From the sequence record SRR20825006_1258: a stretch of 34,546 nucleotides of DNA. One strand, 5' to 3'. Each line of letters opens with the position of its first letter. The first letter of the stretch is position 1. Under the pieces are notes generated by a model that searched no databases, was not told the DNA's origin, and worked only from the letters and a program-made list of their open reading frames with translations. Position numbers and translations under genes: made by a program. This document shows positions 1-15,493 of this stretch, one piece after another.

Positions 1-68
1 TCTTCTTCTATTTTGGCTCTTGATTTATACGCTTCTAATGTATATTTTTATCTATTAACTTATTAAAG

Positions 69-100
69 GCTACATAAGAGCTGTGGTCGTTAGCATAATT
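69..100 (+). repeat. Right end of an attC-like element (left part probably outside the window)
   Basis: GCTACATAAGAGCTGTGGTCGTTAGCATAATT matches the right end of the 1602-1810 element (GCTA...CGTTAGCGGTAATT). It lies 13 nt before the ATG at 114. Confidence 0.55.
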
Positions 101-113
101 ACGACCAAATAAC

Positions 114-1601
114 ATGAAACATCTTAAACTAACCATTTTACTATTAACCACAATTTGCTTTACTGCCTGTAATCAAAGACTGAGCGAAACCGTTAATACA
201 GACAGATTAAGTTCATCCATAAATGAATATCTAACGGCATGTGAGTCAAATGGATTCAACGGTGCTGTTTTAGTTACAAAAGGAGACAGTATTATTCTTA
301 ACAAAGGTTATGGATTCGCCAATAAGGAAAAGTCTTTTGCAAATACTCCCAAAACGGTATATGATATCTGTTCTGTAACGAAGCAGTTTACGGGAGCGGC
401 AATATTAAAATTAGCCGAGAACGAAAAACTAGAGCTAACCGATTCTTTAATTACATATTTTAATGATTTGCCCGTTGATAAACAAAACATCACCATTCAC
501 CATTTACTCACACATTCGGGTGGCTTTGGGCACGACATAGGCAAAGGTGATTTTGACCATATCCCTGAAAAACAGTATTTCCAGCAATTGTTTGATACCG
601 ACTTGCAGTTCACACCGGGAGAAAAATATGAGTACTCTAACTCTGGCTACAGTATTCTTGGACGAATAATAGAAATCGTATCAGGCAAAAGCTATGAAAG
701 CTATATAAGTGAAGATTTATTTAAACCAGCAGGGATGTCGCAAACTGGTTATCTTCTGCCTGAATGGGATAGTGATTTAGTGGCTAATGAATATTTGTAT
801 AATGTGATAAATAAAGAGAACCACATTTCCAAATATCAGAAGGATGGAAAAATTGCTTGGGCTCTAAAAGCAAATGGAGGTATTCACTCCACCCAAGAAG
901 ATATGTACAAATGGTATTTGGCATTAAAAAACAATACAGTATTAAACAAACAATCTATAGAAAAATTAACCGCACCTCACATTCTCGAGTATGAAGACGA
1001 ATCGAGTTATTATGGTTATGGTTGGGTAACATTTCAGTCAGATAGAGGTACAAAAGTAATTACTCATAATGGTTTTAATGGTGTTTCTTATTACGAGTTT
1101 ATTTGGTTTCCAGAAGAAGATGCTCTTATTCTATTTTCAACCAATTCGTCAACTCGCGAATCTTCAAGAATACCGTTTGAATTAGAAAAAATACTCTTTA
1201 ATGAGAATTATAAAGCTAAACCTATCTCAAAAAGTAAGGTTAGTGAGTTGCTAAAATTTTCCGAAAACTATACGGGAGATTTGATTTTTTTAGGGAAAGA
1301 ATTAAAGCAAGAATTCGAAGCAAAGTTGAATAATCCTACTTATTTAAACGGTTTAAGTGGGATTTATTTAAGGGCGAATAAAATTAACTATGCTGTTGTC
1401 ATTACGGAACTCAATACCGAATTATTTCCAAATGATGGTAATGTATGGGATACTATGGGAGATGTATACCTTGCTGATAAACAAAATGAAAAGGCAATAT
1501 ATAGTTATAAAAAAGCATTGGAATTTAAACCTGAAAATGATGATTGCTTTTGGTGTGAGAATTCTTCCTCTCAGCTTAAAAATTTGGAGACAAAAAAATA
1601 A
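114..1601 (+). CDS. Serine hydrolase (beta-lactamase/AmpC-like family) lipoprotein with C-terminal TPR
   Basis: Lipobox FTAC, SxxK (SVTK), LLTHSGG, YxN (YSN) and HNG motifs. The C-terminal segment NVWDTMGDVY...AIYSYKKALE is TPR-like. Confidence 0.9.
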   Translation: MKHLKLTILLLTTICFTACNQRLSETVNTDRLSSSINEYLTACESNGFNGAVLVTKGDSIILNKGYGFANKEKSFANTPKTVYDICSVTKQFTGAAILKLAENEKLELTDSLITYFNDLPVDKQNITIHHLLTHSGGFGHDIGKGDFDHIPEKQYFQQLFDTDLQFTPGEKYEYSNSGYSILGRIIEIVSGKSYESYISEDLFKPAGMSQTGYLLPEWDSDLVANEYLYNVINKENHISKYQKDGKIAWALKANGGIHSTQEDMYKWYLALKNNTVLNKQSIEKLTAPHILEYEDESSYYGYGWVTFQSDRGTKVITHNGFNGVSYYEFIWFPEEDALILFSTNSSTRESSRIPFELEKILFNENYKAKPISKSKVSELLKFSENYTGDLIFLGKELKQEFEAKLNNPTYLNGLSGIYLRANKINYAVVITELNTELFPNDGNVWDTMGDVYLADKQNEKAIYSYKKALEFKPENDDCFWCENSSSQLKNLETKK

Positions 1602-1810
1602 ACTATTGTCAACAACGTGTATAAAACATAGCTAATATAGGCTTTTCGATAGGTTTTTGTGTACTTATACAAGTACGCCAAATTTCTAATTTAATTATAC
1701 TTAAAAAAGAAAATTAAACATGAAAATTAAAAGATTGGCTCGTGCTAAATCCGAAAAGTTTGCGTCTTTTTAGACGCTATGTTCCATACACAAGACCGTT
1801 AGCGGTAATT
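1602..1810 (+). repeat. Complete attC-like imperfect inverted repeat (~210 bp) between two genes
   Basis: The left arm GTCAAC-AAC-GTGTATAAAACATAGC (to 1632) pairs with the right arm GCTATGTTCCATACAC-AAGACC-GTTAGCGG (1776-1805). Internal hairpins lie at 1661-1676 and 1762-1777. The element starts immediately after a stop codon. Confidence 0.7.
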
Positions 1811-1841
1811 TGAAAAACATCGCGAAAAAGAGAATAACAAG

Positions 1842-2576
1842 ATGAAGCAAAACAAATATGACGATAATGACTTTTTTGAAAGTTATGGGAAAATGCCACG
1901 TTCAATTGACGGTTTAAATTCGGCAGGAGAATGGTATGTTTTGAGAAAAATGTTGCCCGTTTTTCAAGGGAAAAATGTGCTCGACCTTGATTGCGGATAT
2001 GGTTGGCATTGCATTTATGCTAAACAACAAGGAGCTGAAAATGTAGTTGGAATTGACTTATCGCAAAACATGATTGACAAAGCCAAAGAAAATTCCAAAG
2101 ACTTGGTAATTGACTATAAGCAAATGGCAATCGAGGATATTGATTTTGAACCAGAACAATTCGATGTTGTCATTAGTTCACTTGCATTCCATTACTTAAA
2201 AGACCTAAAAACTGTTTTTGGGCAAATCAACCGAATCTTAAAAAAAAGTGGAAGTTTTGTATTCTCAATGGAACATCCGGTCTTTACATCAAGAGCCGAA
2301 CAGGATTGGCTTACAGACGAAAATGGAAATCGAATACATTGGCCCGTTGACAATTATCAAAACGAAAGTAAAAGAAAAGCCCAATTTCTTGGACACGAAG
2401 TGACCAAATATCATCGGACTTTGGAAACTATAATAAATACGGTAATTCAATCAAATTTTGATATTAAAGAAATATCCGAGCCAAAACCATCAAAGGAAAT
2501 TTTAAAAAAATATCCAGAAATGAAAGACGAAATGAGGAGGCCAATATTTATTATAATTTCAGCAATAAAGAAATAA
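1842..2576 (+). CDS. Class I SAM-dependent methyltransferase (motif I variant)
   Basis: VLDLDCGYG (normally LDLGCGxG), VVGIDLS, FDVVISSLAFHY and FSMEHP motifs. Confidence 0.88.
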   Translation: MKQNKYDDNDFFESYGKMPRSIDGLNSAGEWYVLRKMLPVFQGKNVLDLDCGYGWHCIYAKQQGAENVVGIDLSQNMIDKAKENSKDLVIDYKQMAIEDIDFEPEQFDVVISSLAFHYLKDLKTVFGQINRILKKSGSFVFSMEHPVFTSRAEQDWLTDENGNRIHWPVDNYQNESKRKAQFLGHEVTKYHRTLETIINTVIQSNFDIKEISEPKPSKEILKKYPEMKDEMRRPIFIIISAIKK

Positions 2577-2588
2577 TAAGCGAAAAAA

Positions 2589-2757
2589 ACGTACCAAAAC
2601 ACCGTATATAGGATGTGCTTGATCGGTGCCTACATGGAAAATCCTCAAGGTTTTCCAAAGCCAGTTTTGATTCCGATTTTTTCATTGGTAATTTGAACGC
2701 CTTTAATTTTAACGTTTCCTTTCCGAACGGCGCGAGATAGCACACTGACTTCCTATG
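2589..2757 (+). repeat. Degenerate attC-like element (left arm intact, right GTT end missing)
   Basis: ACGTACCAAAACACCGTATATAGGATGTGCT aligns with the left arm of the 1602 element. There is an internal hairpin GGAAAATCC-TCAA-GGTTTTCC at 2636-2656 and a partial complement AGCACA...TCCTAT at 2739-2756. Confidence 0.5.
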
Positions 2758-3188
2758 CTATAAAAAACATCGACGTCTTTTTCACTATTTGGTATTGCAA
2801 CATCTGTCGATTCAATCGTCACACTTTCAATCAAATATTTCTTCTTTTGATTAGAGATTTAGAATAAATTAATCTTCGTGTTGCCATTAGGAATACAATA
2901 ATGATGGACAGAAGTGATGAACCAACACAACCATAAAAATGTTAGAACGTCAAGAAAACGTTCTTCGAACGATTCCTGTTTTTAATTCCTGAATAAATTA
3001 AAAATCACCCTGACTAACCAATTCGTATAACTCCTTCATTATTACTAAACAAGTTTACGTTTAGAAAAAAAAGTAGCCTTCCAACTTAGCCTATTTAGAA
3101 GGTTTTCAACCTAAGCAACGCATTAAATCCCGTCACGTTTTGAGGAAAATGCTTGATCAAATAAGCAGGAAATTTAAAAATTTATTAA

Positions 3189-3959
3189 ATGAAAAAAACA
3201 ACTTTGTTCTCAACACTTTTAATCGCTTTTGGTATTTCAAATGGTATTAATGCCGCGATAATTTACAACAATATTGCAGATGTAACTCTTGCTAGTGGAG
3301 GAACCATTGACATTGACTTTAATGGCGGAGGTGCTGAATTCACTTTTACAGACATTGGATTTGGTACTGTAGAGCCTGGGATCTTTTTCAATTCTCAAGA
3401 TGATCATCTTACCACAATTAGCGCCAATGAATGGGATGTTCTTAAGGGTTTAACTGCAGGAACAACTATAGATGCAAATGCAGGGTTTTATGATCAAGGA
3501 GATGCTTTTATCGATCCATTTTGGGGAACAACGTTATTCCCGACAGTAGACACATACTTAGGAGCACAATTCAAAATTGGCGCAAACACGCATTATGGTT
3601 GGATTCTAGTAAATTGGAATGCGGCGGGAACCTTTATCGTGAAAAGCTATGCGTACGATGATGTGCCTAGTAAATCGATTAAAGCAGGGGAAACTTCGAG
3701 TACGACTGCAAATGTCCGAACCTTGGAAAGCATTGATGTATCGGTTTATCCAAACCCTTGTTTTGATGTTTTAACAATCAATTTAAATGAATCAACTAAT
3801 GCCGAGCTTAACATTTATAATTTGACTGGTAAAAACGTTTTACAAGTTTCATTTAACGCCCAAACCAAAGTAGATGTTAGAAACTTAATTTCTGGAGTTT
3901 ATATTCTTAACATAACTACAGATAAAGGAACATTTCAAAATCGGATAATAGTCGAATAA
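3189..3959 (+). CDS. Secreted protein with T9SS type A C-terminal sorting domain
   Basis: Sec signal peptide and a THYGWI motif domain. The CTD reads VYPNP...IYNLTGK...L.SGVYIL...RIIVE. Confidence 0.88.
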   Translation: MKKTTLFSTLLIAFGISNGINAAIIYNNIADVTLASGGTIDIDFNGGGAEFTFTDIGFGTVEPGIFFNSQDDHLTTISANEWDVLKGLTAGTTIDANAGFYDQGDAFIDPFWGTTLFPTVDTYLGAQFKIGANTHYGWILVNWNAAGTFIVKSYAYDDVPSKSIKAGETSSTTANVRTLESIDVSVYPNPCFDVLTINLNESTNAELNIYNLTGKNVLQVSFNAQTKVDVRNLISGVYILNITTDKGTFQNRIIVE

Positions 3960-4090
3960 ACTTGTCCTCAAAAAAATGAAAAACTAGTTGCATCGGTGTC
4001 TTCACTTGAGTTGAACAGCAACTTAATCACAGATAAAATAATAAATTATCCCGAAGCAATTAATTTGAGAAACACTTTCAAAAAATCACT

Positions 4091-4138
4091 AAAATGCAAC
4101 AATTTGTGTCCTTTAAGCGACATAGATTGTTGCATTTT
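4091..4138. terminator. 20-bp stem hairpin, probable terminator
   Basis: AAAATGCAACAATTTGTGTC, an 8-nt loop, then GACATAGATTGTTGCATTTT (two G-U pairs on the + strand). It lies 131 nt after the T9SS gene. Confidence 0.55.
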
Positions 4139-4497
4139 CAGTTAAGAATGCGGGAACCATTCTTCAATAGACTGAATGTTGCCCAATTTTGAACCACAAA
4201 ACCCTTTTGATTATCTTCTGAATGTAAATTCGGTATTGCACCATTCACATGTTCCATTGTTTACCTGATTTCTCCTTCTTCCATCTCTTCACTTATTAGA
4301 CTGATCTTTTAGACATAATTGAATAACCCTCGCTATATTTTTCTTCGATATTTGTCCGAATTCGTCAACTAAACGGAGCAAGTCTATTTTTTTAGGTTTG
4401 TCCTGTTTTTATTCTCTCCCACTTCTCTCACCATTAAATGATTATAATCTACTAAACGATTCTCCCCATCAATGCTCAGTAAACCGAGCAATTGTTG

Positions 4498-4505
4498 TAA
4501 TTTTG
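4498..4505 (+). promoter_or_regulatory. Bacteroidota sigma-A -7 box
   Basis: TAATTTTG fits TAnnTTTG, 34 nt before the ATG at 4540. Confidence 0.5.
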
Positions 4506-4539
4506 ACAACTCTAGCGAAAACAGCTTAAAAAAGAAAAA

Positions 4540-4890
4540 ATGGAACAAAACGAATTTTTAGATCAACACGTATTTTCTAATTTAAAGAGTACTTCTATCA
4601 ATGTAGATTCTTCCCCAGTTCTATTTTTCTCAGAGGCCGATTTTGAAGTAGCGTTAGAGCGTATAAAATATTTTGGAATTAGCGTTTATGCGATTGAGCC
4701 ATATTTCGAAGGGAAGTCTTTTGGTGTAAAAACGAACGTTGACCTGAAGAAAAAAGCAACAGATGCCAATTGGTATGAAAAAGCATTTTCCACTTTTAAG
4801 CATTTTCAACCAGGAATGGAGTATTCAGGAAGTTTTAAAGTTCCAAGTAAATTATTAGCGAGATATTCAGACTCCCCTATTTCAGAGTAA
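4540..4890 (+). CDS. Hypothetical protein
   Basis: 116-aa ORF with an A-rich leader, an ATG start, an upstream promoter box and globular composition. Confidence 0.75.
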   Translation: MEQNEFLDQHVFSNLKSTSINVDSSPVLFFSEADFEVALERIKYFGISVYAIEPYFEGKSFGVKTNVDLKKKATDANWYEKAFSTFKHFQPGMEYSGSFKVPSKLLARYSDSPISE

Positions 4891-5092
4891 ATTTGTGCTC
4901 TTTTCTTTTGCAAAATCGCCTCTAAATTACCCACATTCTCTAAAGGGGCTCTGCGAAAATTATTTAACATTTTAGTTTTCATAAGCACCCGAGCAGCTTA
5001 ACTAATACATTACTAGAAACATACGTTGGAAATCACAATCCCAGACATCAAGCCTTCATTTCAAGCACATATAATTTTGCAGAAAATTTCCT

Positions 5093-5100
5093 TAAGTTTG
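5093..5100 (+). promoter_or_regulatory. Bacteroidota sigma-A -7 box
   Basis: TAAGTTTG fits TAnnTTTG, upstream of the protease gene. Confidence 0.45.
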
Positions 5101-5193
5101 ACTAACAAGAAACCTAAATAGTCACTTATCTATTTGAATTGCGACAGGCGTGTTTTCAGTAGATTAGTAACCGCTATTTATCAAACTAAATTT

Positions 5194-8100
5194 ATGACTA
5201 AAAAAAGCCTAACGCTATTTGTTATGTTAGCGTTACTAGTGAGCAGTTCATTCTCGTTCGCTCAGGAAAAGAAAGCCCAGCTGGGGTGCGGGACATCAGA
5301 ATTGATGGAAACGCTCTCAAAATCCAACCCGAATGTGATCCCCAGCATGCAGCAACTGGAGGAAAGAATTACAAAGTATTACGGTGCCAATCCAATTGGT
5401 GCACAACAAAAATCCACTCCGAATTCAATGCTCACCATTCCAGTGGTGGTTACTATCGTTCATAACGGAGGCCCAGAAAACATAAGTGATGTTCAAGTCT
5501 TGAGTCAAATCAACGCCTTAAACACTTACTTTAATCCTTACGGTTTGAATTTTTGTTTAGCAACACAACAAGGTAACGTTCCTTTTTCTGGAACTACACC
5601 TGGGATTTTCAGAGTTCAAAATGCTGGTTTAACAAACCATTCGAGCACTGCAATATCGGCGCTCATGGCAACTTCAAACCTGAACCCTGCCAATTACTTG
5701 CGCATCTGGGTAGTAAATGAAATTACTTCTCCCGGTTCAAGTGGACAAATCCAAGGGTATGGAACATTTCCTGCTAGTTACACGGATCCAAATCTTGATG
5801 GAATTGTCATGCGTTATACAGCATTTGGAGATCAAGCTACATGTAATTGTGGAGTTTTAAATCCATTGACGAATCAAGGAAAGGTATTAGTACACGAAGT
5901 TGGACATTACCTTGCTCTATACCACACCTTTCAGGATAATTGCTCTGGAATGAATGCAAATGATTGCGCTTCCGCTGGTGATCGTGTATGTGATACACCA
6001 CCCGTACAGCAACCAAATACAGGATGTCCATCTGTAGCTCCAAATTCATGTAATGAACTCTATGGAGTTGATTTACCAGATGACATCAATAACTACATGG
6101 ATTATACGAATGAGGCGTGTCTCAATAGCTTCACAGACGGACAAAAAAGCCGAATGTATGCAACGATTTCACAAAGTAGATCACTTTTAGTTGCGGCATC
6201 TAACTTAACATTTACCGGAGTCAATTGTGCATCGACTGTCCTACCTGGATTTACAGCAGACAACTACGTTCCATGCATTGGCACAACGGTTACATTTACC
6301 GCAAATCCGCTCAACAACGCAACATTTGAATGGGATTTTGGAGACGGAACATCCGCTGTAGGAGCATCTGTGCAACACACCTATACTTCCGCTTTTTCGC
6401 CAGTGACAGTTACTCTAACTGCAACGGTTGGAAATCAATCTGGTTCAACAGTTCAAAATATTGTTGTTAACACATGTGCACCAATTCAAAGCACGAATGC
6501 ACATTGGTTTTTCTGCGATAGAAATGCGTTGGACTTCAGTTCGGGAGCTCCTGTATTTGACAACTCAGCGGTTCTTAATAATACATTCAATCTAACTACC
6601 TCCTCTACAAATCCTAATGGACAAACAGCAAGTGAATCTGCGGCAAGTCAAAGCGACGCTAACGGTAATTTGCTTTTCTATACAGACGGAATCAACGTGT
6701 GGAATAACTTGCATCAATTAATCAACCCATCAACACCATTAGGCGGACACAGAAGTTCTAACGATGGAGTGTTGATTGTTCCAGATCCTGGGAATGCTTC
6801 GGAATACTATGTTTTCACGACGTGTGATGCTGGAATCGCAGCAAGAACTGGATTTACTTATTCAAAAATATCAATTTCGGGAGGTAGCGCACAGCTTGTC
6901 GCTGGTCAAATTAACATTCCAATTCTCGCTCCTTCTGCATTAGACGTACGTTTGGCCAATTCTGGGGCAATCATCGCTGGTGAAGGAATTACTGCTATTG
7001 CAAAATCTGATGGATTCTACATTATTGCGGAAGCAATGAACTTGAACAGAACTGGATCATATTTGTTGCGATTTGACCTCACATCTGCAGGTTTACAATT
7101 CGGAACTCAAATTTCCATTTATTCATGGAGCTCTCAAATGTGGGATTTAAACTCAGATGCTTTCGAAGTTAAAGCGTCTCCAAATGGCAGACACATTGCA
7201 TTTAAAGGAACGCAAGTAAATCCAGGAAGAGTAATTGATTTCGATCCATGTACAGGATTGTTCTCGAATGTTCGAAATATCACGGGAGTGAATTCTCAAA
7301 TTATTTTTGCTTTTAGTCCGAACTCAAAGTTTTTGTATGCGATCAACTATAATCCTGCAGGAAGTAGTCTTTACCAAATTAAGGTAACCGATCCAGCAAT
7401 GACGGCAGTTCAAGTTAGTCAACTGTTCACAAATACAGCGGGAATGGCCGTTGGACCTGATGATAAGATTTATTTATCGGCGAGAGGGTCGTATATTCTT
7501 GAGACTATCCATTCTCCAAATGAAGAGTCTACCCCAGCGCTACCAAATGCTTGTCTTTACACTCCAAATGGACCGGTTGTTTTCAATAGTCCAAATATTC
7601 AGTCGCTGTACTACACTCTACCAAACACGATAGTAGCATCAAGCGCAACTGTTTATTCGAATGAAATAACTCATGCTCAAGATTTTGGTGATTGCTTCAC
7701 ATTTGAATTTGAAGCCATTGTTTGTGCTAATTCATTTAGTTGGAATTTTGGAGATCCTCAATCTGGAAGTAATACATCTACATTGTCGACTCCATCGCAT
7801 ACCTTTTCAGCACCTGGAACGTATACGGTAACGCTAGTTGCGAACGGTATAACAATCACACACACTGTCGAAGTAGCTCCTCAACCTCAATTCACTGGAG
7901 CAACAACAATTTGTCCAGCAAACGGAATGACAGTTAACTACGGTTTCTCAGTTCCAATTGGATACACTTGTTCATGGGCTGTTACGAATGGAACAATTAA
8001 TGGTCTTAATACGCAGTCGAATGTGGATGTTACATGGACTTCACTTCCTGCTACTTTAACACTTTCGATGACCAATATCGCGAACGGGTGCACAACATCA

Positions 8101-9349: not shown

Positions 9350-9468
9350 ATATCGCAGATTTAATCGATATTTACTCTTTTAGCTGACCTTTCAATCAAT
9401 ACTTCTCTACCACTAAAAATTAACTTTCACCGAGTTGTTACCTTCAACCATTTTTGAATTATATCGTT

Positions 9469-10377
9469 ATGAAAACACTCTTACTTATTCTAATTTCTAG
9501 CGCTTATTCGTTTTCTCAAAAATCTGGCGACAATTACATTACATATAACAATTACGCGAGTGAAGCTGAATATTATTTTCATGAAGGAATGTATGATTCG
9601 TCTTTGTATTATTTTGATCTAAGTTTTCAATTTGCGTCTGCTCCTCACCCTACCCATCATTACAAATATGCAAAGGCACTTTGGAAATTGAATGAAAACA
9701 AAGAAGCATTAAAAGAAATCTATCAAAACAAAGGAATTACGCAGGTCGATACCAACTGGTTTTCTGGATTGAGCACGTCGGAATATGAATCAATTAACGC
9801 TGCCTTAAAAAAGAACCTTATCACAACAAAAAGTGTTCAGCACTGTAGAGATTTCATCGATTCTTTAATGCTATTAGACCAGATGGTTCGCAAAGATTTT
9901 GACAGAAATGATTCTCTAAAATTGACTAGATTAAAGGATCAAGACAGCTTGAATGGCCTCACATTGATCAAATTTTCCATGGAATATGGGTTTCCCGCAG
10001 GAAAGAATGCTGGTTGGAGTCAAGATGCTGCAACCATTCTACTTCACATGTCGCCTGAGTGGTTCGTTGAAAATTATTCCATCTTGATTAAGGAAGTAAT
10101 TAAAGGAAATCTTGAACCTTGGATGCTCGCACGGGGGATTGATCGAATGTTCGCTGTAAAAGTTGGTGAAGATAAGGTAAGTCCAACCAACAGGTATTAT
10201 AATGAAAGTATCATCGATCCATTCTTAATGTTTCAAAATTGTATTGCCACGGGCGTTTCTCCCTATTATGATTACAATTGGTTCTCAAACCCAAAAAAGA
10301 CCATTCATTTTGAGTATTACAAGAAGAATAAAGCATACTATAATGCAACCGTGATGTATGTAAACGGGAATCATTAA
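9469..10377 (+). CDS. Exported helical hypothetical protein (TPR-like N-terminus, DQxVR...DSxN...GFP motif resembling DUF6624)
   Basis: Signal peptide MKTLLLILISSAYSFSQ from the ATG at 9469, and the motif LDQMVRK...DQDSLN...YGFP. Confidence 0.75.
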   Translation: MKTLLLILISSAYSFSQKSGDNYITYNNYASEAEYYFHEGMYDSSLYYFDLSFQFASAPHPTHHYKYAKALWKLNENKEALKEIYQNKGITQVDTNWFSGLSTSEYESINAALKKNLITTKSVQHCRDFIDSLMLLDQMVRKDFDRNDSLKLTRLKDQDSLNGLTLIKFSMEYGFPAGKNAGWSQDAATILLHMSPEWFVENYSILIKEVIKGNLEPWMLARGIDRMFAVKVGEDKVSPTNRYYNESIIDPFLMFQNCIATGVSPYYDYNWFSNPKKTIHFEYYKKNKAYYNATVMYVNGNH

Positions 10378-10490
10378 ATATTCTAAAATGCGGCCCCGTT
10401 ACCAATTGCTCTAAAAGTATTTCTAATTTTAGAATGAAACCTTTCGAGGGGTTCGAATGAGAATTCAATGGAGAATATAATAGACGGTAC

Positions 10491-11480
10491 ATGTGGTTTG
10501 AAAAGTTGACAGGATTTGCAGAAAAAAGTCCAGAGCACGTTAGAGAAAATATTGAGATTGTTGGAGACAAACTCATTTCAAAAGTCAATCATAAGGAGTT
10601 TACTTCTGGTAGGCTTGAAGTTCCAAGTTTAGAATCTCTACGTAACCAAACGTTAGCAATTAATTATCCAAAGGGGAAAATTTCGATTTCTGAAGTCGTT
10701 GGAAATGTTCAAAAGATGCACATGGATCTTGAAAACAACGGTGCATTTTTCCAAGCTGCTTCGCAATTCAATCTCCTAGAAATGGTAAGTCCTCAAGTTT
10801 CCCCAGAAAATGGAGTTGCGATCTACGAAAATGACTTTACACAAGGCCCAGCATGCGCCATAGCATGCGGAGCGGGTACAATTTATAGAAACTACTTCGC
10901 AAATGTGAATGGCAGAATAGGACAATCGAATGATAATCAAATAGACTGTTTGGCCGATCTTGGTGATGAATTAGGGAATGGCAACGGACTTCTTTGGAAA
11001 ATGACCAATGGATATGCCTTGCCTAGTTTGGAGGGACTAAAAAAGACCACCGAATTGATTCTCTCAAAATCACCTGAAGAATATGATCAATTAAAAAGCA
11101 AACTGAAAATTGGAATTCAATGGCATACTCAAGTAACCGTTAATTCTGGGAACAATCATGTTTCGCAGGCTTATTGTTCTGCTCTCCCTGTTTCTTATTC
11201 TAGTATAAGACCAGAATTATGGAGCGTTTTTGCTAAACTGGTTTTGGAAGCAACATACGAAGCCACCTTGCATGCTGCGTTAATTAATTATCAAGCAACA
11301 GGCAACAATAAAGTGTATTTCACTCTTGTAGGTGGTGGCGCTTTCGGTAATGATCGATCCTGGATTTTTGATTCAATGAGACTTTCTATGACTAAATTCA
11401 CAAACACTCCACTAGATATTAGAATTGTGAGCTATGGTGGATCGAATAAAGATGTACGCGACTTTGTAGAATCATTTTAG
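10491..11480 (+). CDS. Uncharacterised protein, probable macrodomain/PARG-like fold
   Basis: Motifs FQAASQFNLLEM, YENDFTQGPACA and TLVGGGAFGN. The last resembles the macrodomain diphosphate-binding loop. Confidence 0.65.
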   Translation: MWFEKLTGFAEKSPEHVRENIEIVGDKLISKVNHKEFTSGRLEVPSLESLRNQTLAINYPKGKISISEVVGNVQKMHMDLENNGAFFQAASQFNLLEMVSPQVSPENGVAIYENDFTQGPACAIACGAGTIYRNYFANVNGRIGQSNDNQIDCLADLGDELGNGNGLLWKMTNGYALPSLEGLKKTTELILSKSPEEYDQLKSKLKIGIQWHTQVTVNSGNNHVSQAYCSALPVSYSSIRPELWSVFAKLVLEATYEATLHAALINYQATGNNKVYFTLVGGGAFGNDRSWIFDSMRLSMTKFTNTPLDIRIVSYGGSNKDVRDFVESF

Positions 11481-11569
11481 GAGGGGAAAGGCAGTCGATA
11501 ATTTGAATAATGGCTATTGACAATAGCAAAGTAACATGTAAATTTCTTAAAAAATCAACTTGAAAAGTA

Positions 11570-11941
11570 TTGGAGCAAATAATAAAAATAGAGACCGACT
11601 ATGGAGTACTTGAGGGAAGAGATAGTATTTATCTCGACAAGCTAAACTATTTGACAGAAAATCAATTGTTACTTGAAGGAGAATTCAATACAAATTCAGG
11701 GTTCATAAAATATGCAATCACATTCTCAGGTGTTCTTTACTTGAAATCGGTAGAACTAGATTATTATGAGGGAAATCAATTAGCAAGTTTTGGTTTCATA
11801 CAAAATTCAAGACTAATCAAAAGGTTAAAAAAACTCGATCACTCCAATAAACTAGGTACTGATCATAAGCACTATTATTTTAAGACCTACGATACAGCAT
11901 TCGAAATTGTGTCTAGTAAATACTCCTTGCAGCATCCATGA
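11570..11941 (+). CDS. Hypothetical protein
   Basis: 123-aa ORF with a TTG start and protein-like motifs (GRDSIYLD, ELD, HKHYYFKTYD). Its stop overlaps the next ATG. Confidence 0.7.
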   Translation: MEQIIKIETDYGVLEGRDSIYLDKLNYLTENQLLLEGEFNTNSGFIKYAITFSGVLYLKSVELDYYEGNQLASFGFIQNSRLIKRLKKLDHSNKLGTDHKHYYFKTYDTAFEIVSSKYSLQHP

Positions 11942-12087
11942 ACGTCGAATCATATAAAGTAAAAGACTGGAAGAATCGAGGAAAAGGTTTTCTTATTTCC
12001 GAAAATGAAGAGTGGATTTTGGTGAAACATATCCCGACTGATTATGTTGTGGATAGATTTAAACTAAATAGAAAGGCACTTCTTTGA
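11938..12087 (+). pseudogene. 49-codon ORF, probably a truncated gene
   Basis: ATGA overlap with the upstream stop. It reads MNVESYKVKDWKNRGKGFLISENEEWILVKHIPTDYVVDRFKLNRKALL and is absent from the ORF track. Confidence 0.45.
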
Positions 12088-12120
12088 AAAGTCTATTTAC
12101 ACCACAAATAACAATATTAA

Positions 12121-12696
12121 ATGAATATAATTAAGCACGGAATTAGTCTAGTAGCCCCAAACGCAGTCCTTGAATATCAATCCTCCATAGGGAATCGCAT
12201 CATTTACAAAGAAAAGAATAAAGCATGCATTTTTATAGTCGTCAACGGGGAGCACTATATTCGATGGGGATTGAGCTTTATCGGAATTGCCTTGTTATCC
12301 GTCATCGGAATACTGACTAACATTAAAAATTTCAACTGGTTCATCCTCTTTGTAGTTGGTTTAGTAACTCTTCCTTTTCTAGCAGTTGGAATTAATTACA
12401 TTCGCAAAGCACGGTCAAAAACACTACTTAAATTTGATCACCTCAAAAAAGAGATTGTTCTAAACGATACATATCGCCTCTCCTATTCCAAAGTGAAATC
12501 ATTCACCATATCTTTGCTCGATTCAAGTAAAGATGGAGACAATTACGAAGCGTATCAACTGAACCTATTGTATGGCAACAAAGAACTCGTTTTAATCAAC
12601 GCTGACTCCTATAAATCTATCTTGTATGCTGCCGAATTTCTTTCCAAAGAAACAGAAATTCATCTTAGACGCGATATCATTGAAAACATCCGTTAA
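12121..12696 (+). CDS. Hypothetical membrane protein (two TM helices plus soluble C-terminal domain)
   Basis: Two hydrophobic segments, WGLSFIGIALLSVIGIL and WFILFVVGLVTLPFLAVGI. Confidence 0.7.
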   Translation: MNIIKHGISLVAPNAVLEYQSSIGNRIIYKEKNKACIFIVVNGEHYIRWGLSFIGIALLSVIGILTNIKNFNWFILFVVGLVTLPFLAVGINYIRKARSKTLLKFDHLKKEIVLNDTYRLSYSKVKSFTISLLDSSKDGDNYEAYQLNLLYGNKELVLINADSYKSILYAAEFLSKETEIHLRRDIIENIR

Positions 12697-13130
12697 ATTC
12701 GACTAATTGCACACTGTGGTTCAATTTGCTCATACCATTGAGAAGTTTCTTTACTGTTATCCGATAAATGAAATCCACATTCCGAACCGCCAATTGTATA
12801 AAGCGTTTTTGGTGAAGAGATGAAATAAATATTCTCAAAACCTTTCTCAATTTTTCGTCCCAATTTAACTTCTTCAGGTCGCTTTTCTGAATAATAAAAC
12901 CACGTTCTTTCTCCATCTTCGCCTTCAATGAGCTTTAAAAACTCTCCTGTGCCCAGATCGTCGGATTTAAAAATGAAAGTCGTTGGATCAACAGGTACTT
13001 CTTCAACTTCTTCGGGCATCATTACTTCCTCAGAATTTCCCTCAATAGACTGATTTTCTGGTTCAGCCGCGCATCCGACCATCAATAATCCCAAACCAAT
13101 TGTAAAAAGAAGCTTCTCAAAACGTTTCAT
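12693..13130 (-). CDS. Hypothetical lipoprotein
   Basis: Signal peptide with lipobox MVGC, followed by an acidic linker. Confidence 0.8.
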   Translation of the reverse strand: MKRFEKLLFTIGLGLLMVGCAAEPENQSIEGNSEEVMMPEEVEEVPVDPTTFIFKSDDLGTGEFLKLIEGEDGERTWFYYSEKRPEEVKLGRKIEKGFENIYFISSPKTLYTIGGSECGFHLSDNSKETSQWYEQIEPQCAISRI

Positions 13131-13227
13131 ATTCTAAATTTTAGATCAAAATAGCCAATTTTTTCAAATCGCTTACTCCCAAGTTGTGCTATTTTTACAA
13201 TTGATTAAATCCTGCATAACTCAGTCC

Positions 13228-14247
13228 ATGAAATTCTTCTGTTGCCTTGTTCTATTATCGCTTTTCGCCTGTTCTACTTCAGAAAATGTGAGTGAGCCTA
13301 ATGAAGTAATTTGGAAATCAACAGTTGATTCTTTGCTCATCAATAGCGACTTTAATGGCGTTATCTTGATCCAGAAAGATGACAAAACAATCTACTCAAA
13401 CACCAAAGGTTTTAGCAACTTCGACGCTAAAACCAAACTAAAACTCAGTGATCAATTCGTGATTGGCTCAATTAGCAAACAAATTACCACAGTTTTGGTC
13501 ATGAGAGCTAAAGAAAAGGGCAAAATCGACTTAAACCAAACCATCGATAAGTATCTTCCAGAACTTCTGCAACCGTGGGCAAAAGAAGTCACCATTCATC
13601 ATCTGCTCACGCACACACACGGAATCGTTTCGGAAGACGCGCCTCTTGAATTCAAACCAGGAAGCCAATTCAGTTATTCCCAACTCGGTTATGAACTTCT
13701 TGCTCAAGTTTTGGAGAACGTAGAACAACAATCATTTCAGGAATTGTCGACATCGCTATTTCGTGAAAACGGACTAAACGATACATTTCATCCAGATGAC
13801 GAATCTTACATTCGACTTGTGAAAGGATACGAAACTTTAGAAAACGGAACCGTTTCTGTCGCATTGAATAGTCTAAAAAACTATGTTGCCGCTGGATCAT
13901 TTATTTCTACAGCGTCCGATTTAAGTAAATGGAATTACTTGTTGCACAGCGGAAAACTAGTCAAAAAACCAACTTATGAATTAATGCAAATGGATCATGC
14001 TACGAGAATTCATCCCATTTTTGATTCGATTCAATACGGTTATGGATTGGTGTTTAAAAAAGGACAAAACGCTATTGAAATAGGGACTTTTGGCTACGCG
14101 CCAGGATTTGTTTCGACCTCCTATTTCTATCCGAAATCTAAGATTAGTCTCGTAGTACTCTCCAATTTAGCAAACGATCCGAGTGATTTTAAAAAGATCT
14201 TTTGGATCCATACTGAGTTGATGAAAATCATGAAGAAATCGAACTAA
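13228..14247 (+). CDS. Serine hydrolase (beta-lactamase-like) lipoprotein
   Basis: Lipobox LFAC after the ATG at 13228, with SISK, LLTHTHG and FSYSQLGY motifs. Confidence 0.88.
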   Translation: MKFFCCLVLLSLFACSTSENVSEPNEVIWKSTVDSLLINSDFNGVILIQKDDKTIYSNTKGFSNFDAKTKLKLSDQFVIGSISKQITTVLVMRAKEKGKIDLNQTIDKYLPELLQPWAKEVTIHHLLTHTHGIVSEDAPLEFKPGSQFSYSQLGYELLAQVLENVEQQSFQELSTSLFRENGLNDTFHPDDESYIRLVKGYETLENGTVSVALNSLKNYVAAGSFISTASDLSKWNYLLHSGKLVKKPTYELMQMDHATRIHPIFDSIQYGYGLVFKKGQNAIEIGTFGYAPGFVSTSYFYPKSKISLVVLSNLANDPSDFKKIFWIHTELMKIMKKSN

Positions 14248-14993
14248 GAACGATCCTCTTCCTTCAGAACATTCGTTTTGTGCTTTAAGATTTTCAGCAC
14301 ATACGCAAATAACAAAGCGACGAACAATACAATGCCGTGTATCCATTTCCACTGAACAGATTCGTTAAAAATCCATTCACGAACAAAATCAACGTAAACA
14401 AAACCGATTATTGCGGCAGAAATCCCTGGATATTCTCTTCTGAGAATCGTTTTCATTGAAAAAGTAACGTTCGTTGGTACATAATGCTTTCTAGACGGAA
14501 TAAAAGAAGGTGTTTTTTCTGACCATTTAAGAAATTCATCTCCAAATTCTCGCTCCAAAAATTCCTCTTCCGAAAACATAATTCGTTCATAATACAGCCA
14601 AAACGCAAGCATTACAACCAAAATAAACCAAGCATTTGCTGTGTACACAACAATTCCCATCCACATGAAAAAATTCCCCAAGTAAAGCGGATGTCGAACA
14701 GTTGAATAAATCCCAGTTTTGTTCAATGCTTTGGCTTCGTGTCCCCATGTATTTCTACCAGAAGTTTGTTTTGCGCTTTTTCCTATGGCTAGGGAACGAA
14801 TAATTTGCCCTGTGAACGAAATTAATGCACAGGTTATCAACAACGAAACCTCAAACCAATCATGCTTTTTAACAAACTGTAAATCAGATAAGTAAATAGC
14901 TGGAATTGCAGCCGCAAATAACACTAGTGGTAGTTGACCACGGTGTTTAAAAAGTATAATGCCTTTTTTTTCGAAATCGTGCCTCAGAGCCAT
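14244..14993 (-). CDS. ICMT/PEMT-family membrane methyltransferase, LmtA-like (lipid A phosphate methyltransferase)
   Basis: SGRNT, GIYSTVRHPLYLGNF, YYERIMFSEEEFL and TPSFIP motifs with several TM helices. The likely start is MALRHDFE at 14993. Confidence 0.75.
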   Translation of the reverse strand: MALRHDFEKKGIILFKHRGQLPLVLFAAAIPAIYLSDLQFVKKHDWFEVSLLITCALISFTGQIIRSLAIGKSAKQTSGRNTWGHEAKALNKTGIYSTVRHPLYLGNFFMWMGIVVYTANAWFILVVMLAFWLYYERIMFSEEEFLEREFGDEFLKWSEKTPSFIPSRKHYVPTNVTFSMKTILRREYPGISAAIIGFVYVDFVREWIFNESVQWKWIHGIVLFVALLFAYVLKILKHKTNVLKEEDRS

Positions 14994-15053
14994 TGAAAAA
15001 GAATATGTATATTGCGATTTTTCAATCACGAAGGTAATAGAATTAACACTACT

Positions 15054-15443
15054 ATGGCAGAGAAGGAGAAATATGAGATGGAATATCTCTTGAAAACCTC
15101 AATAAAAGTTTTGGATAACATGGTCAGCACACCAAGTGGGTTGAGCGAGTGGTTTGCCGATGACGTGAATATCAAAGATGACATTTACACGTTCATCTGG
15201 GATGGTAGTGAAGAAGAGGCCCGACTCCTTTCAAAGAAGACGAACTCCAAGGTCAAATGGCAATGGATTGAGGATGAAGAGGACGATTTAAGCACGTACT
15301 TCGAAATGAGGTATGATGTTGACCCAATGACAAAAGCGGTAATTTTAACGGTAACGGATTTTGCGGAACCCGATGAAAGAGATGAATCGAGCCGATTGTG
15401 GGATCAACAAATCACCCAATTAAAACGCTTGCTCGGCGCATAA
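15054..15443 (+). CDS. START-like domain protein (Bacteroidota)
   Basis: STPSGLSEWFADDV, YTFIWDGSEEEA, VTDFAE and LWDQQITQLKRLLGA motifs. The likely start is the ATG at 15054. Confidence 0.85.
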   Translation: MAEKEKYEMEYLLKTSIKVLDNMVSTPSGLSEWFADDVNIKDDIYTFIWDGSEEEARLLSKKTNSKVKWQWIEDEEDDLSTYFEMRYDVDPMTKAVILTVTDFAEPDERDESSRLWDQQITQLKRLLGA

Positions 15444-15493
15444 TTCGTAAGTTTTTTCGTTTCTATTAAATTATGAAGTAATTCTTCTCAGGC

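Follow-up and report, generated by a model that had tools for sequence, protein, structure and literature searches.

Integrons are the textbook example of a system that captures genes one at a time. The crossover takes place between the G and the TT of the R' box of a site, so that whatever follows GTT is already part of the next cassette, and attC sites are usually about 57-141 nt long. Large chromosomal integrons are known to carry toxin-antitoxin cassettes. Here we consider a stretch of 34,546 nucleotides from sequence record SRR20825006_1258 (the window), whose first 2.8 kb hold two co-oriented, unrelated genes with one complete and two partial attC-like sites. An earlier note, made from the letters of this DNA, had taken them for the tail of an integron-like array of cassettes. 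We think it probable that positions 1-2760 are the distal end of a chromosomal integron-type cassette array in a member of the marine Flavobacteriaceae. The sites would form a new, long, AT-rich class of attC with off-consensus R boxes and a strand bias encoded by wobble pairs, and the host family would be new as well.

Which described systems come closest? The superintegron of Vibrio cholerae, with its VCR (Vibrio cholerae repeat) sites, shares with the arrays described here a long co-oriented layout of mostly single-gene cassettes (see in part Ghaly et al. 2021, PMC8618304). Likeness to the sedentary chromosomal integrons extends to the homogeneity of sites within a genome, their lineage specificity, the diverse cargo, the G|TT crossover, and the presence of a toxin-antitoxin cassette inside an array. 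Unlike those integrons, the DNA covered here shows no integrase, attI or Pc, its hosts are Flavobacteriaceae, its cassettes are large, and its AT-rich sites reach 246 nt, have a median length of 133 nt and carry R boxes off the consensus. [quoted passage not shown] (2016, PMC4889954) that define them have it, have at least two attC-type sites and no integrase nearby, which is also true of the window and of all seven array-bearing sources. CALINs are however defined by matches to the attC model of IntegronFinder, and the array heads here lie outside the DNA covered.

A single well-known site makes the comparison concrete. After the stop codon, the aadA1 attC of R100 (NC_002134), from a class 1 integron, has R'' (GTCTAAC) and a 5-nt spacer, then L'', a centre and L', and lastly a 6-nt spacer and R' (GTTAGAT); it is 60 nt long, and the next cassette starts at TT. 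The order of parts, the AAC and GTT triplets, the 6-nt right spacer and the start of the next cassette at TT are the same in our sites. The aadA1 site is, on the other hand, short and G+C-rich, whereas the complete site of the window (site B) has 199 nt and is AT-rich, the sites here being two to four times longer; the left spacer has 5 nt there and 3 nt here; the classical R-box consensus describes the R100 site and not ours; and arm profiles made from Flavobacteriaceae give no match to it.

Within the phylum the comparison is a matter of description only. Salinibacter ruber M1, in the same broad phylum grouping, has a complete integron, but it has an integrase, its sites are recognised by the standard model, and it belongs to a different bacterial class (Néron et al. 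2022, PMC9024848, in the passages on this strain). In those passages it is the only complete integron named within Bacteroidetes itself, the others cited being in Chlorobi and Ignavibacteriae, and only In0 elements are said to have been known in Bacteroidetes as of 2016. Reviews, in the parts that touch on this phylum, place Bacteroidota among the phyla with integrons and give no detail. We found no description of cassette arrays or attC sites in Flavobacteriaceae in the open-access full texts searched.

Cassettes held in common by different genomes

The support that decides against chance comes from other genomes rather than from the window alone. A protein scan of species-representative genomes with the first gene of the window, a serine hydrolase (gene 1), gave 23 loci, referred to below by L numbers. 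Copies whose proteins are 80-85% identical to it are present in Tenacibaculum (L001), Eudoraea (L002), Lutimonas (L003, NZ_JAIUZR010000003.1) and Psychroserpens (L004, NZ_JBALVR010000003.1), all of the Flavobacteriaceae, and in a metagenome-assembled genome (MAG) of the Flavobacteriales (L006). At the DNA level, blastn similarity to the window starts at window base 88 for L004, 89 for L002, 96 for L003 and 107 for L001 and ends at 1625-1636, so that window 88-1636 is 85-87.5% identical to the units of these four loci; the L002 and L004 copies are 94% identical to each other. Upstream, similarity among the copies opens at G|TT(G/A)GCA..TAATTACGACC, and the preceding DNA does not align. Downstream, it continues past the stop codon, takes in R'', L'' and L', and ends at R'. 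In L001-L004, TTGCCAAC comes a few bases at most after the stop codon; one arm, a centre whose length varies, the other arm and CGTT follow in that order.

The flanking genes are different in every locus: a GTPase upstream and a hydrolase downstream in L003, a dioxygenase and a pyridoxal-phosphate (PLP) enzyme in L004, a methyltransferase downstream in the window. L003 and L016 have three more cassettes in common, whose order relative to gene 1 differs. It seems clear that cassettes move between genomes as units and change order, and that the unit boundary is the G|TT inside R'. Indeed, the breakpoints of gain and loss of the hydrolase cassette in five other sources fall there, which is where the earlier note had looked for them.

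Does the sequence of the sites themselves record the crossover? In an integron, R'' is expected to pair with the first bases of its own cassette rather than with the R' that comes after it in the array. Over the 7 bases outside AAC and GTT, R'' matches the R' at the start of the same cassette at a mean of 5.41/7 (n=22), against 2.83/7 for the R' of its own site (n=24). Among 17 cassettes with both values, 15 favour the partner in the same cassette, 2 tie, and none goes the opposite way; several reach 7/7. When partners are shuffled the mean is 3.06 (sd 0.29), and 0 of 20000 shuffles reach 5.41. Complementarity of R'' within the same cassette is the integron crossover signature, and in these 22 cassettes it puts the boundary at G|TT, as the earlier note had it. 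Because the outer half of R'' is complementary to the opening bases of its own cassette, only the circular form of the cassette restores a complete site. Terminators, generic repeats and transposons with terminal inverted repeats do not predict such pairing.

How widespread are the sites? Profiles of the left arm (R'' with L'') and the right arm (L' with R') were built from nine sites in three iterations and run over about 0.43 Mb, made up of the window and the 23 loci; scanning for arms with a loose regular expression was too unspecific and was dropped. The earlier note had staked its case on further copies of the arms, and the window and six Flavobacteriaceae loci supply them, the total at E<1 being 31 left and 33 right arms with one marginal match in L017 included (Table 1). 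Arms at E<1 are absent from ten other Flavobacteriia loci with more distant homologues of gene 1 (L005, L007-L009, L011-L015 and L022) and are thus no general feature of the intergenic DNA of the family. Tandem arrays of co-oriented cassettes bounded by attC-type sites were found in the window and in L010 (NZ_CANLNS010000005.1), where the array has at least 17 sites over 21 kb; L004, L003, L016 and L001 have such sites as well. Successive R' sites are about 0.64-4.1 kb apart.

The arm sequences give the consensus ..GCCAAC AAC GTGTATAATTAATTGC ... GCAACTAACCATACAC GAACAC GTT(A/G)G. In order, a site comprises R'' (..AAC) and a short spacer, L'', a centre that varies from about 10 to 190 nt, L', a 6-nt spacer and R' (GTT..). 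AAC is present in 30/31 left arms and GTT in 30/33 right arms, and the local R-box consensus is (T/A)GCCAAC on the left and GTT(G/A)(G/T)(C/N)(C/A)A on the right. From R'' to R' the length in 27 sites is 67-246 nt, with the median given above. The sites of the window had been put at about 200 bp, longer than a typical attC; this was borne out for site B, which lies outside the usual attC range, as do the longer of the 27.

Several features of the arrays deserve separate mention. The AraC regulator plus DJ-1/PfpI cassette and the RsgA-like GTPase cassette are about 70% identical in DNA between L003 (5832-9946) and L016 (747-7439); in L003 they stand on one side of gene 1 and in L016 on the other. 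A single 3.9-kb cassette at L010 9729-13802, with R'' matching its own 5' end at 7/7, has three genes that are reversed relative to the array, which encode a gene-1 homologue (51% identical), a DUF4386 protein and a protein of unknown kind. In L004 a short complete site of about 75 nt (14270-14343, - strand) lies directly after a reversed PF00144 gene (14344-15471), the two making a single inverted cassette at the end of a + strand array. Between that array end and the inverted cassette (13550-14343) are two tandem copies of about 130 nt, each starting with ATGAGAAC and a short reading frame, which are possibly genes for small peptides. The contigs of L001 (2659 bp), L002 (2931 bp) and L006 (5518 bp), and the start of L016, consist wholly of one to three cassettes or end within gene 1. 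This suggests that assemblies break at the repeated sites into contigs of 2-6 kb (L001, L002, L006), and arrays would therefore be under-represented in draft genomes and MAGs.

Table 1. Features of the cassette array in the window, and arms detected at E<1 in each source
Source	Feature	Position	Strand	Remarks
window	site A, right end only	1..95	+	upstream site cut by window edge; R' GTTAGCA 89-95
window	cassette 1	90..1798	+	TT after G89 through G1798; one gene and its own attC-like site
window	gene of cassette 1	114..1601	+	495-aa serine hydrolase, beta-lactamase/transpeptidase fold, C-terminal TPR repeats; PF00144 3.4e-54, TPR_11 3.3e-07
window	site B, complete attC-like	1606..1804	+	199 nt; from arm profiles, inverted repeat and DNA fold; R'' TGTCAAC 1607-1613, spacer 1614-1616 (3 nt), L'' 1617-1632, centre 1633-1775 (143 nt), L' 1776-1791, spacer 1792-1797 (6 nt), R' GTTAGCG 1798-1804
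window	cassette 2, last of array	1799..2760	+	from TT of R' (1799) into truncated site C; 3' limit approximate
window	gene of cassette 2	1842..2576	+	244-aa class I SAM (S-adenosylmethionine)-dependent methyltransferase; Methyltransf_11 2e-23
window	site C, degenerate terminal	2594..2760	+	R'' CCAAAAC 2594-2600, spacer 2601-2603, L'' 2604-2619, centre; by direct reading, L' remnants 2738-2743 and 2750-2755 with 6 nt between, no recognisable R'
window	arms			1 left, 1 right
L010	arms		-	17 left, 17 right; all on - strand
L004	arms			7 left (one on - strand), 5 right
L003	arms			2 left, 3 right
L001	arms			2 left, 3 right
L016	arms			1 left, 3 right
L002	arms			0 left, 1 right
L017, non-Flavobacteriia	arms			1 left (E 0.68), 0 right; sole marginal match in six non-Flavobacteriia loci

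The window and the folding of the sites

In the window the two genes of the array are each preceded on the + strand by CGTTAGC (88-94 and 1797-1803), a motif with 6 occurrences in the whole window against 1.65 expected (0/100 shuffles reach 6). The motifs quoted in the earlier note are all present at the positions it gave, and the gene starts lie 13 nt (ATG 114) and 31 nt (ATG 1842) after them, as it said. Its placing of the left arms within 0-12 nt of the stop codon failed for the second arm, since 2598 is 21 nt after the stop at 2574-2576. Site B scores well with both arm profiles (left E 4.2e-05, right E 2.1e-05). A profile of 13 related sites (the A4 alignment, about 135 nt each, as bottom strands) has three matches in the window at E<0.001, at 2598-2680, 1748-1806 and 1608-1640, and the next is at E 0.76. 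The match to site C (2598-2680, E 2.2e-4) spans only model positions 49-133 of 138, so that site C retains R'', L'' and centre and is without L' and R'. The elements proposed earlier thus hold up for site B, which is complete, while the third has no intact right arm.

The crossover at site A would fall between G89 and T90; the L'-like part of this site gives no match to the right-arm profile at E<=10, and cassette 1, compared with L004, L002 and L006, has lost 1 nt within its 5' end. From 2800 to 34546 no further arm was found at E<0.5, and the genes there are ordinary chromosomal ones, in keeping with the idea of a cassette-array tail. Since site C is truncated, site A is represented by its R' and cassette 1 has lost a base, the window seems to show the far end of an array, partly decayed and extending further leftwards. 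By blastn-short against all loci, the centres of sites B and C, site A and the DNA after the array gave nothing beyond chance. A separate observation concerns CGTTAGCAATTAATTAT at 10633-10667, an R'-like motif fused to an L''-like motif inside an open reading frame (ORF) at 10491-11480; it is the single weak match at E 0.76 and is probably due to chance.

Do the sites fold? The arms of site B form an inverted repeat (1617-1632 with 1776-1791) of 16 nt, 88% complementary and 143 nt apart, which is one of 111 inverted pairs in 3.6 kb and so unexceptional by itself. It is nevertheless part of the minimum-energy structure of 1598-1815 as a long-range stem, in agreement with the pairing first proposed, and this region folds better than its shuffles on both strands (z -3.94, 1/200 as good, and z -3.62, 0/200), the two strands of site B being equal. 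The region after gene 2 (2577-2800) folds no better than shuffles (z 0.17).

For the A4 alignment, RNAalifold predicts an R stem of 5 bp and an L stem of 16 bp with unpaired interruptions, the two separated by an asymmetric internal loop. The 21 pairs are formed in 91.6% of cells, against 86.7% in shuffles (0/500) and 22-54% in slid controls, and the covariation score is 0.212 against 0.126 (0/500). In the 16 pairs of the L stem, 90.9% of cells are paired in the 13 related sequences, and 5 pairs show compensatory changes. The L stems are kept by covariation, that is, by structure and not by sequence alone. Three pairs are G·T on the bottom strand in 12-13 of the 13 sequences and become A·C mismatches on the top strand, which would make the bottom strand the better paired. 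With DNA parameters it is the more stable in 19/27 sites (mean -18.3 vs -16.9 kcal/mol); its z is below 0 in 15/17 sites and at or below -2 in 7/17. The short sites of L001 and L003 have the textbook fold of an R stem, an internal loop, an L stem with bulged bases and a small terminal loop. Unpaired bases of the L stem, at A4 columns 25-26 and 129 and as bulges in these short sites, are not uniform across sites.

Two further observations concern what lies between the arms. Some elements hold small G+C-rich inner hairpins. The long sites of one genome (L004 2073-2285 and 9780-9985; those of 219-224 nt in L010) share conserved centres of about 150 nt beyond the arms. Because conserved centres, and not the arms alone, are common to the long sites of a genome, the centre may have a function of its own, for example as nested hairpins or a promoter.

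The recombinase and competing explanations

How might these cassettes move? In each, a single gene, or occasionally a small number of genes, precedes a long imperfect palindrome with the layout of an attC site. A tyrosine recombinase of the integron-integrase type, encoded to the left of the window or elsewhere in the genome, would bind the folded bottom strand; recombination between two sites would excise cassettes as circles; and a primary site at the array's head would take the circles in again. In L006 the cassette comes after non-site DNA ending in GTTGGCA, perhaps an insertion site, whether primary or secondary, and L003 4005-4552 is possibly a cassette that has decayed. None of the array heads could be placed with certainty, and no attI or Pc was seen in the loci covered. 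The case for membership in the integron family proper is one of cassette and attC architecture, and the system may be an integron in the strict sense or may only work like one.

Several results weigh against an integron-type array. The first concern the enzyme. There is no tyrosine-recombinase Pfam family (PF00589-type) in the 29 ORFs of the window, where the earlier note had also seen no integrase, nor in the 30 ORFs of L003 and L004; none was found among 127 ORFs of at least 200 aa in 15 Flavobacteriia loci (a Pfam scan with a floor of 140 aa in part of L004, and with 14 homologues of gene 1 left out); and IntI1 of R100 gave no tblastn match at E<1 in the window or the 23 loci. The second concern the sites. 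RYYYAAC describes 2/31 left arms and GTTRRRY 0/33 right arms. The R'' of cassette 1 matches its own 5' end, ungapped and by manual reading, at 3/7 only. Pairs with double changes in A4 number 6 against 4.1 in shuffles (69/500), which is not beyond shuffles. The thermodynamic signal is modest, z being above -2 in 10/17 sites and above 0 in 2/17, and the stems are AT-rich. A covariance model from the 13 related sites failed to recover site B as a whole, its best match in the window being 2617-2700 on the - strand (E 0.47), in the centre of site C; the model missed the 199-nt site because it captures the conserved 135-nt centre of its own 13 sites.

The last of these results concerns the family. 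In the 81 rows for complete Flavobacteriaceae genomes taken from Table S1 of the IntegronFinder 2.0 paper (PMC9024848) there are 0 complete integrons, 0 CALINs and 0 In0 elements, so that a canonical integrase may be absent from the family. The rows are those of Flavobacterium (the first 15 of 76), Tenacibaculum (6), Maribacter (5), Muricauda (3), Psychroserpens (1), Aquimarina (4), Cellulophaga (7), Lacinutrix (4), Polaribacter (7 of 8), Winogradskyella (7), Zobellia (1), Dokdonia (4), Formosa (4), Gramella (4), Kordia (2) and Nonlabens (7). A Tenacibaculum genome paper, in the portion dealing with integrons, likewise reports none by IntegronFinder.

One would think, then, that the array might simply be a fossil, a CALIN without an active integrase that was inherited or acquired once, has been decaying, and is now immobile in this genome. 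We regard this as a possibility to be taken seriously, if not the one we would favour. The loss of L' and R' from site C, which does not fold, the missing base at the 5' end of cassette 1, the failure of the right-arm profile to detect L' in site A, and the lack of an integrase for 34 kb to the right would all be accounted for, and Cury et al. (2016, PMC4889954) describe CALINs as frequent and as integrons that may have degraded. Site B is however intact, folds, and scores on a par with the sites of the large arrays; the array is visible only in its last 2.8 kb; and the cross-genus DNA identity of 85-94% for this cassette points to recent transfer somewhere in the family.

A second question is whether the mover belongs to the integron integrases at all. 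The sites might be as described and the recombinase a different or very divergent one specific to the Flavobacteriaceae, in which case the system would be an integron analogue or a deep branch of the integrons, invisible to current integron finders. We consider this unlikely, though by no means negligible. No IntI-like sequence is present in about 0.4 Mb of arrays and flanks, the standard survey has nothing in the genomes just listed, the Tenacibaculum paper reports no integron, the R boxes depart from RYYYAAC/GTTRRRY, the left and right spacers measure 3 and 6 nt where those of the aadA1 attC measure 5 and 6, and the arm profiles do not find the canonical attC in R100. On the other side, the architecture, the AAC and GTT triplets, the crossover position and the apparent bottom-strand bias are features of IntI substrates. 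Moreover, intI would sit at the head of an array, which for every array is beyond the stretch covered: the arrays of L004 and L010 extend past it, and the left flank of the window lies outside. The 81 surveyed genomes are of other species, which may simply have no arrays. It is similarly doubtful, to our minds, that the marine Flavobacteriaceae have a family-wide exchange system with long AT-rich attC-like sites, invisible to IntegronFinder and served by a non-canonical recombinase, whether as an independent invention or as a deep branch.

Could the elements be ordinary intergenic repeats or terminators, such as hairpins like the repetitive extragenic palindromes (REP) or bacterial interspersed mosaic elements (BIME), with no role in recombination? 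They do come right after stop codons and form hairpins, some with the inner hairpins noted above, but we hold this to be very improbable: terminators do not explain transfer by units with breakpoints at G|TT, and R'' pairs with the start of the same cassette instead of its own R'. A terminator reading was rejected because a search of the + strand in 1602-1841 and 2577-2760 turned up no terminator-like site, and no Rfam family exceeds its threshold (at E<=10, window 1-5200 gives 9 chance-level matches, none near the gathering score). Finally, a small non-autonomous transposon, with terminal inverted repeats TTGGCA... at its start and ...TGCCAA near its end, would fit the mutual inverted repetition of the 5' end and R'', but this is hardly credible and was rejected, since the conserved unit runs 60-240 nt past R'' (L'', centre, L' and the G of R'), which makes the repeat internal, no target-site duplications were seen, and the units all stand head to tail in one orientation.

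Cargo and significance

The cargo of the arrays is varied across loci. The hydrolase of cassette 1 has a probable lipoprotein signal, read from its translation; all its NCBIfam matches are far under their cut-offs (class C beta-lactamase, 64 bits vs 415), and a search of a plasmid collection with the protein found only distant homologues (<60% identity). For the methyltransferase of cassette 2 no NCBIfam match reaches its cut-off, and its cassette has no homologue among the Flavobacteriia loci examined. The varied cargo includes a ParE toxin pair: at L003 4553-5108 a ParE-type toxin and a small upstream partner form a cassette within the array. The other 27 ORFs of the window are ordinary Flavobacteriia chromosomal genes, among them type IX secretion cargo, LptF/G, RibBA and glycosyltransferases. 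Outside the array, six ORFs in a row at 9454-13130 have no Pfam match and are followed by a second PF00144 serine hydrolase (13186-14247).

What would an integron-type array of this kind mean for the Flavobacteriaceae? From the published material cited above, taken as far as it goes, integrons had looked nearly absent in this family and rare in the phylum, with In0 elements and one complete integron in Salinibacter. Several marine genera of the family share and reshuffle cassettes by means of a distinct class of long sites, in arrays of at least 21 kb. Current integron detection probably misses the sites of Flavobacteriaceae, which would be a blind spot. The arrays offer a concrete route to the responsible enzyme, which may be a new clade of integrase or a different enzyme. 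The arrays suggest that hydrolases, esterases and regulators may spread by cassettes among sea bacteria that process algal and particulate organic matter.

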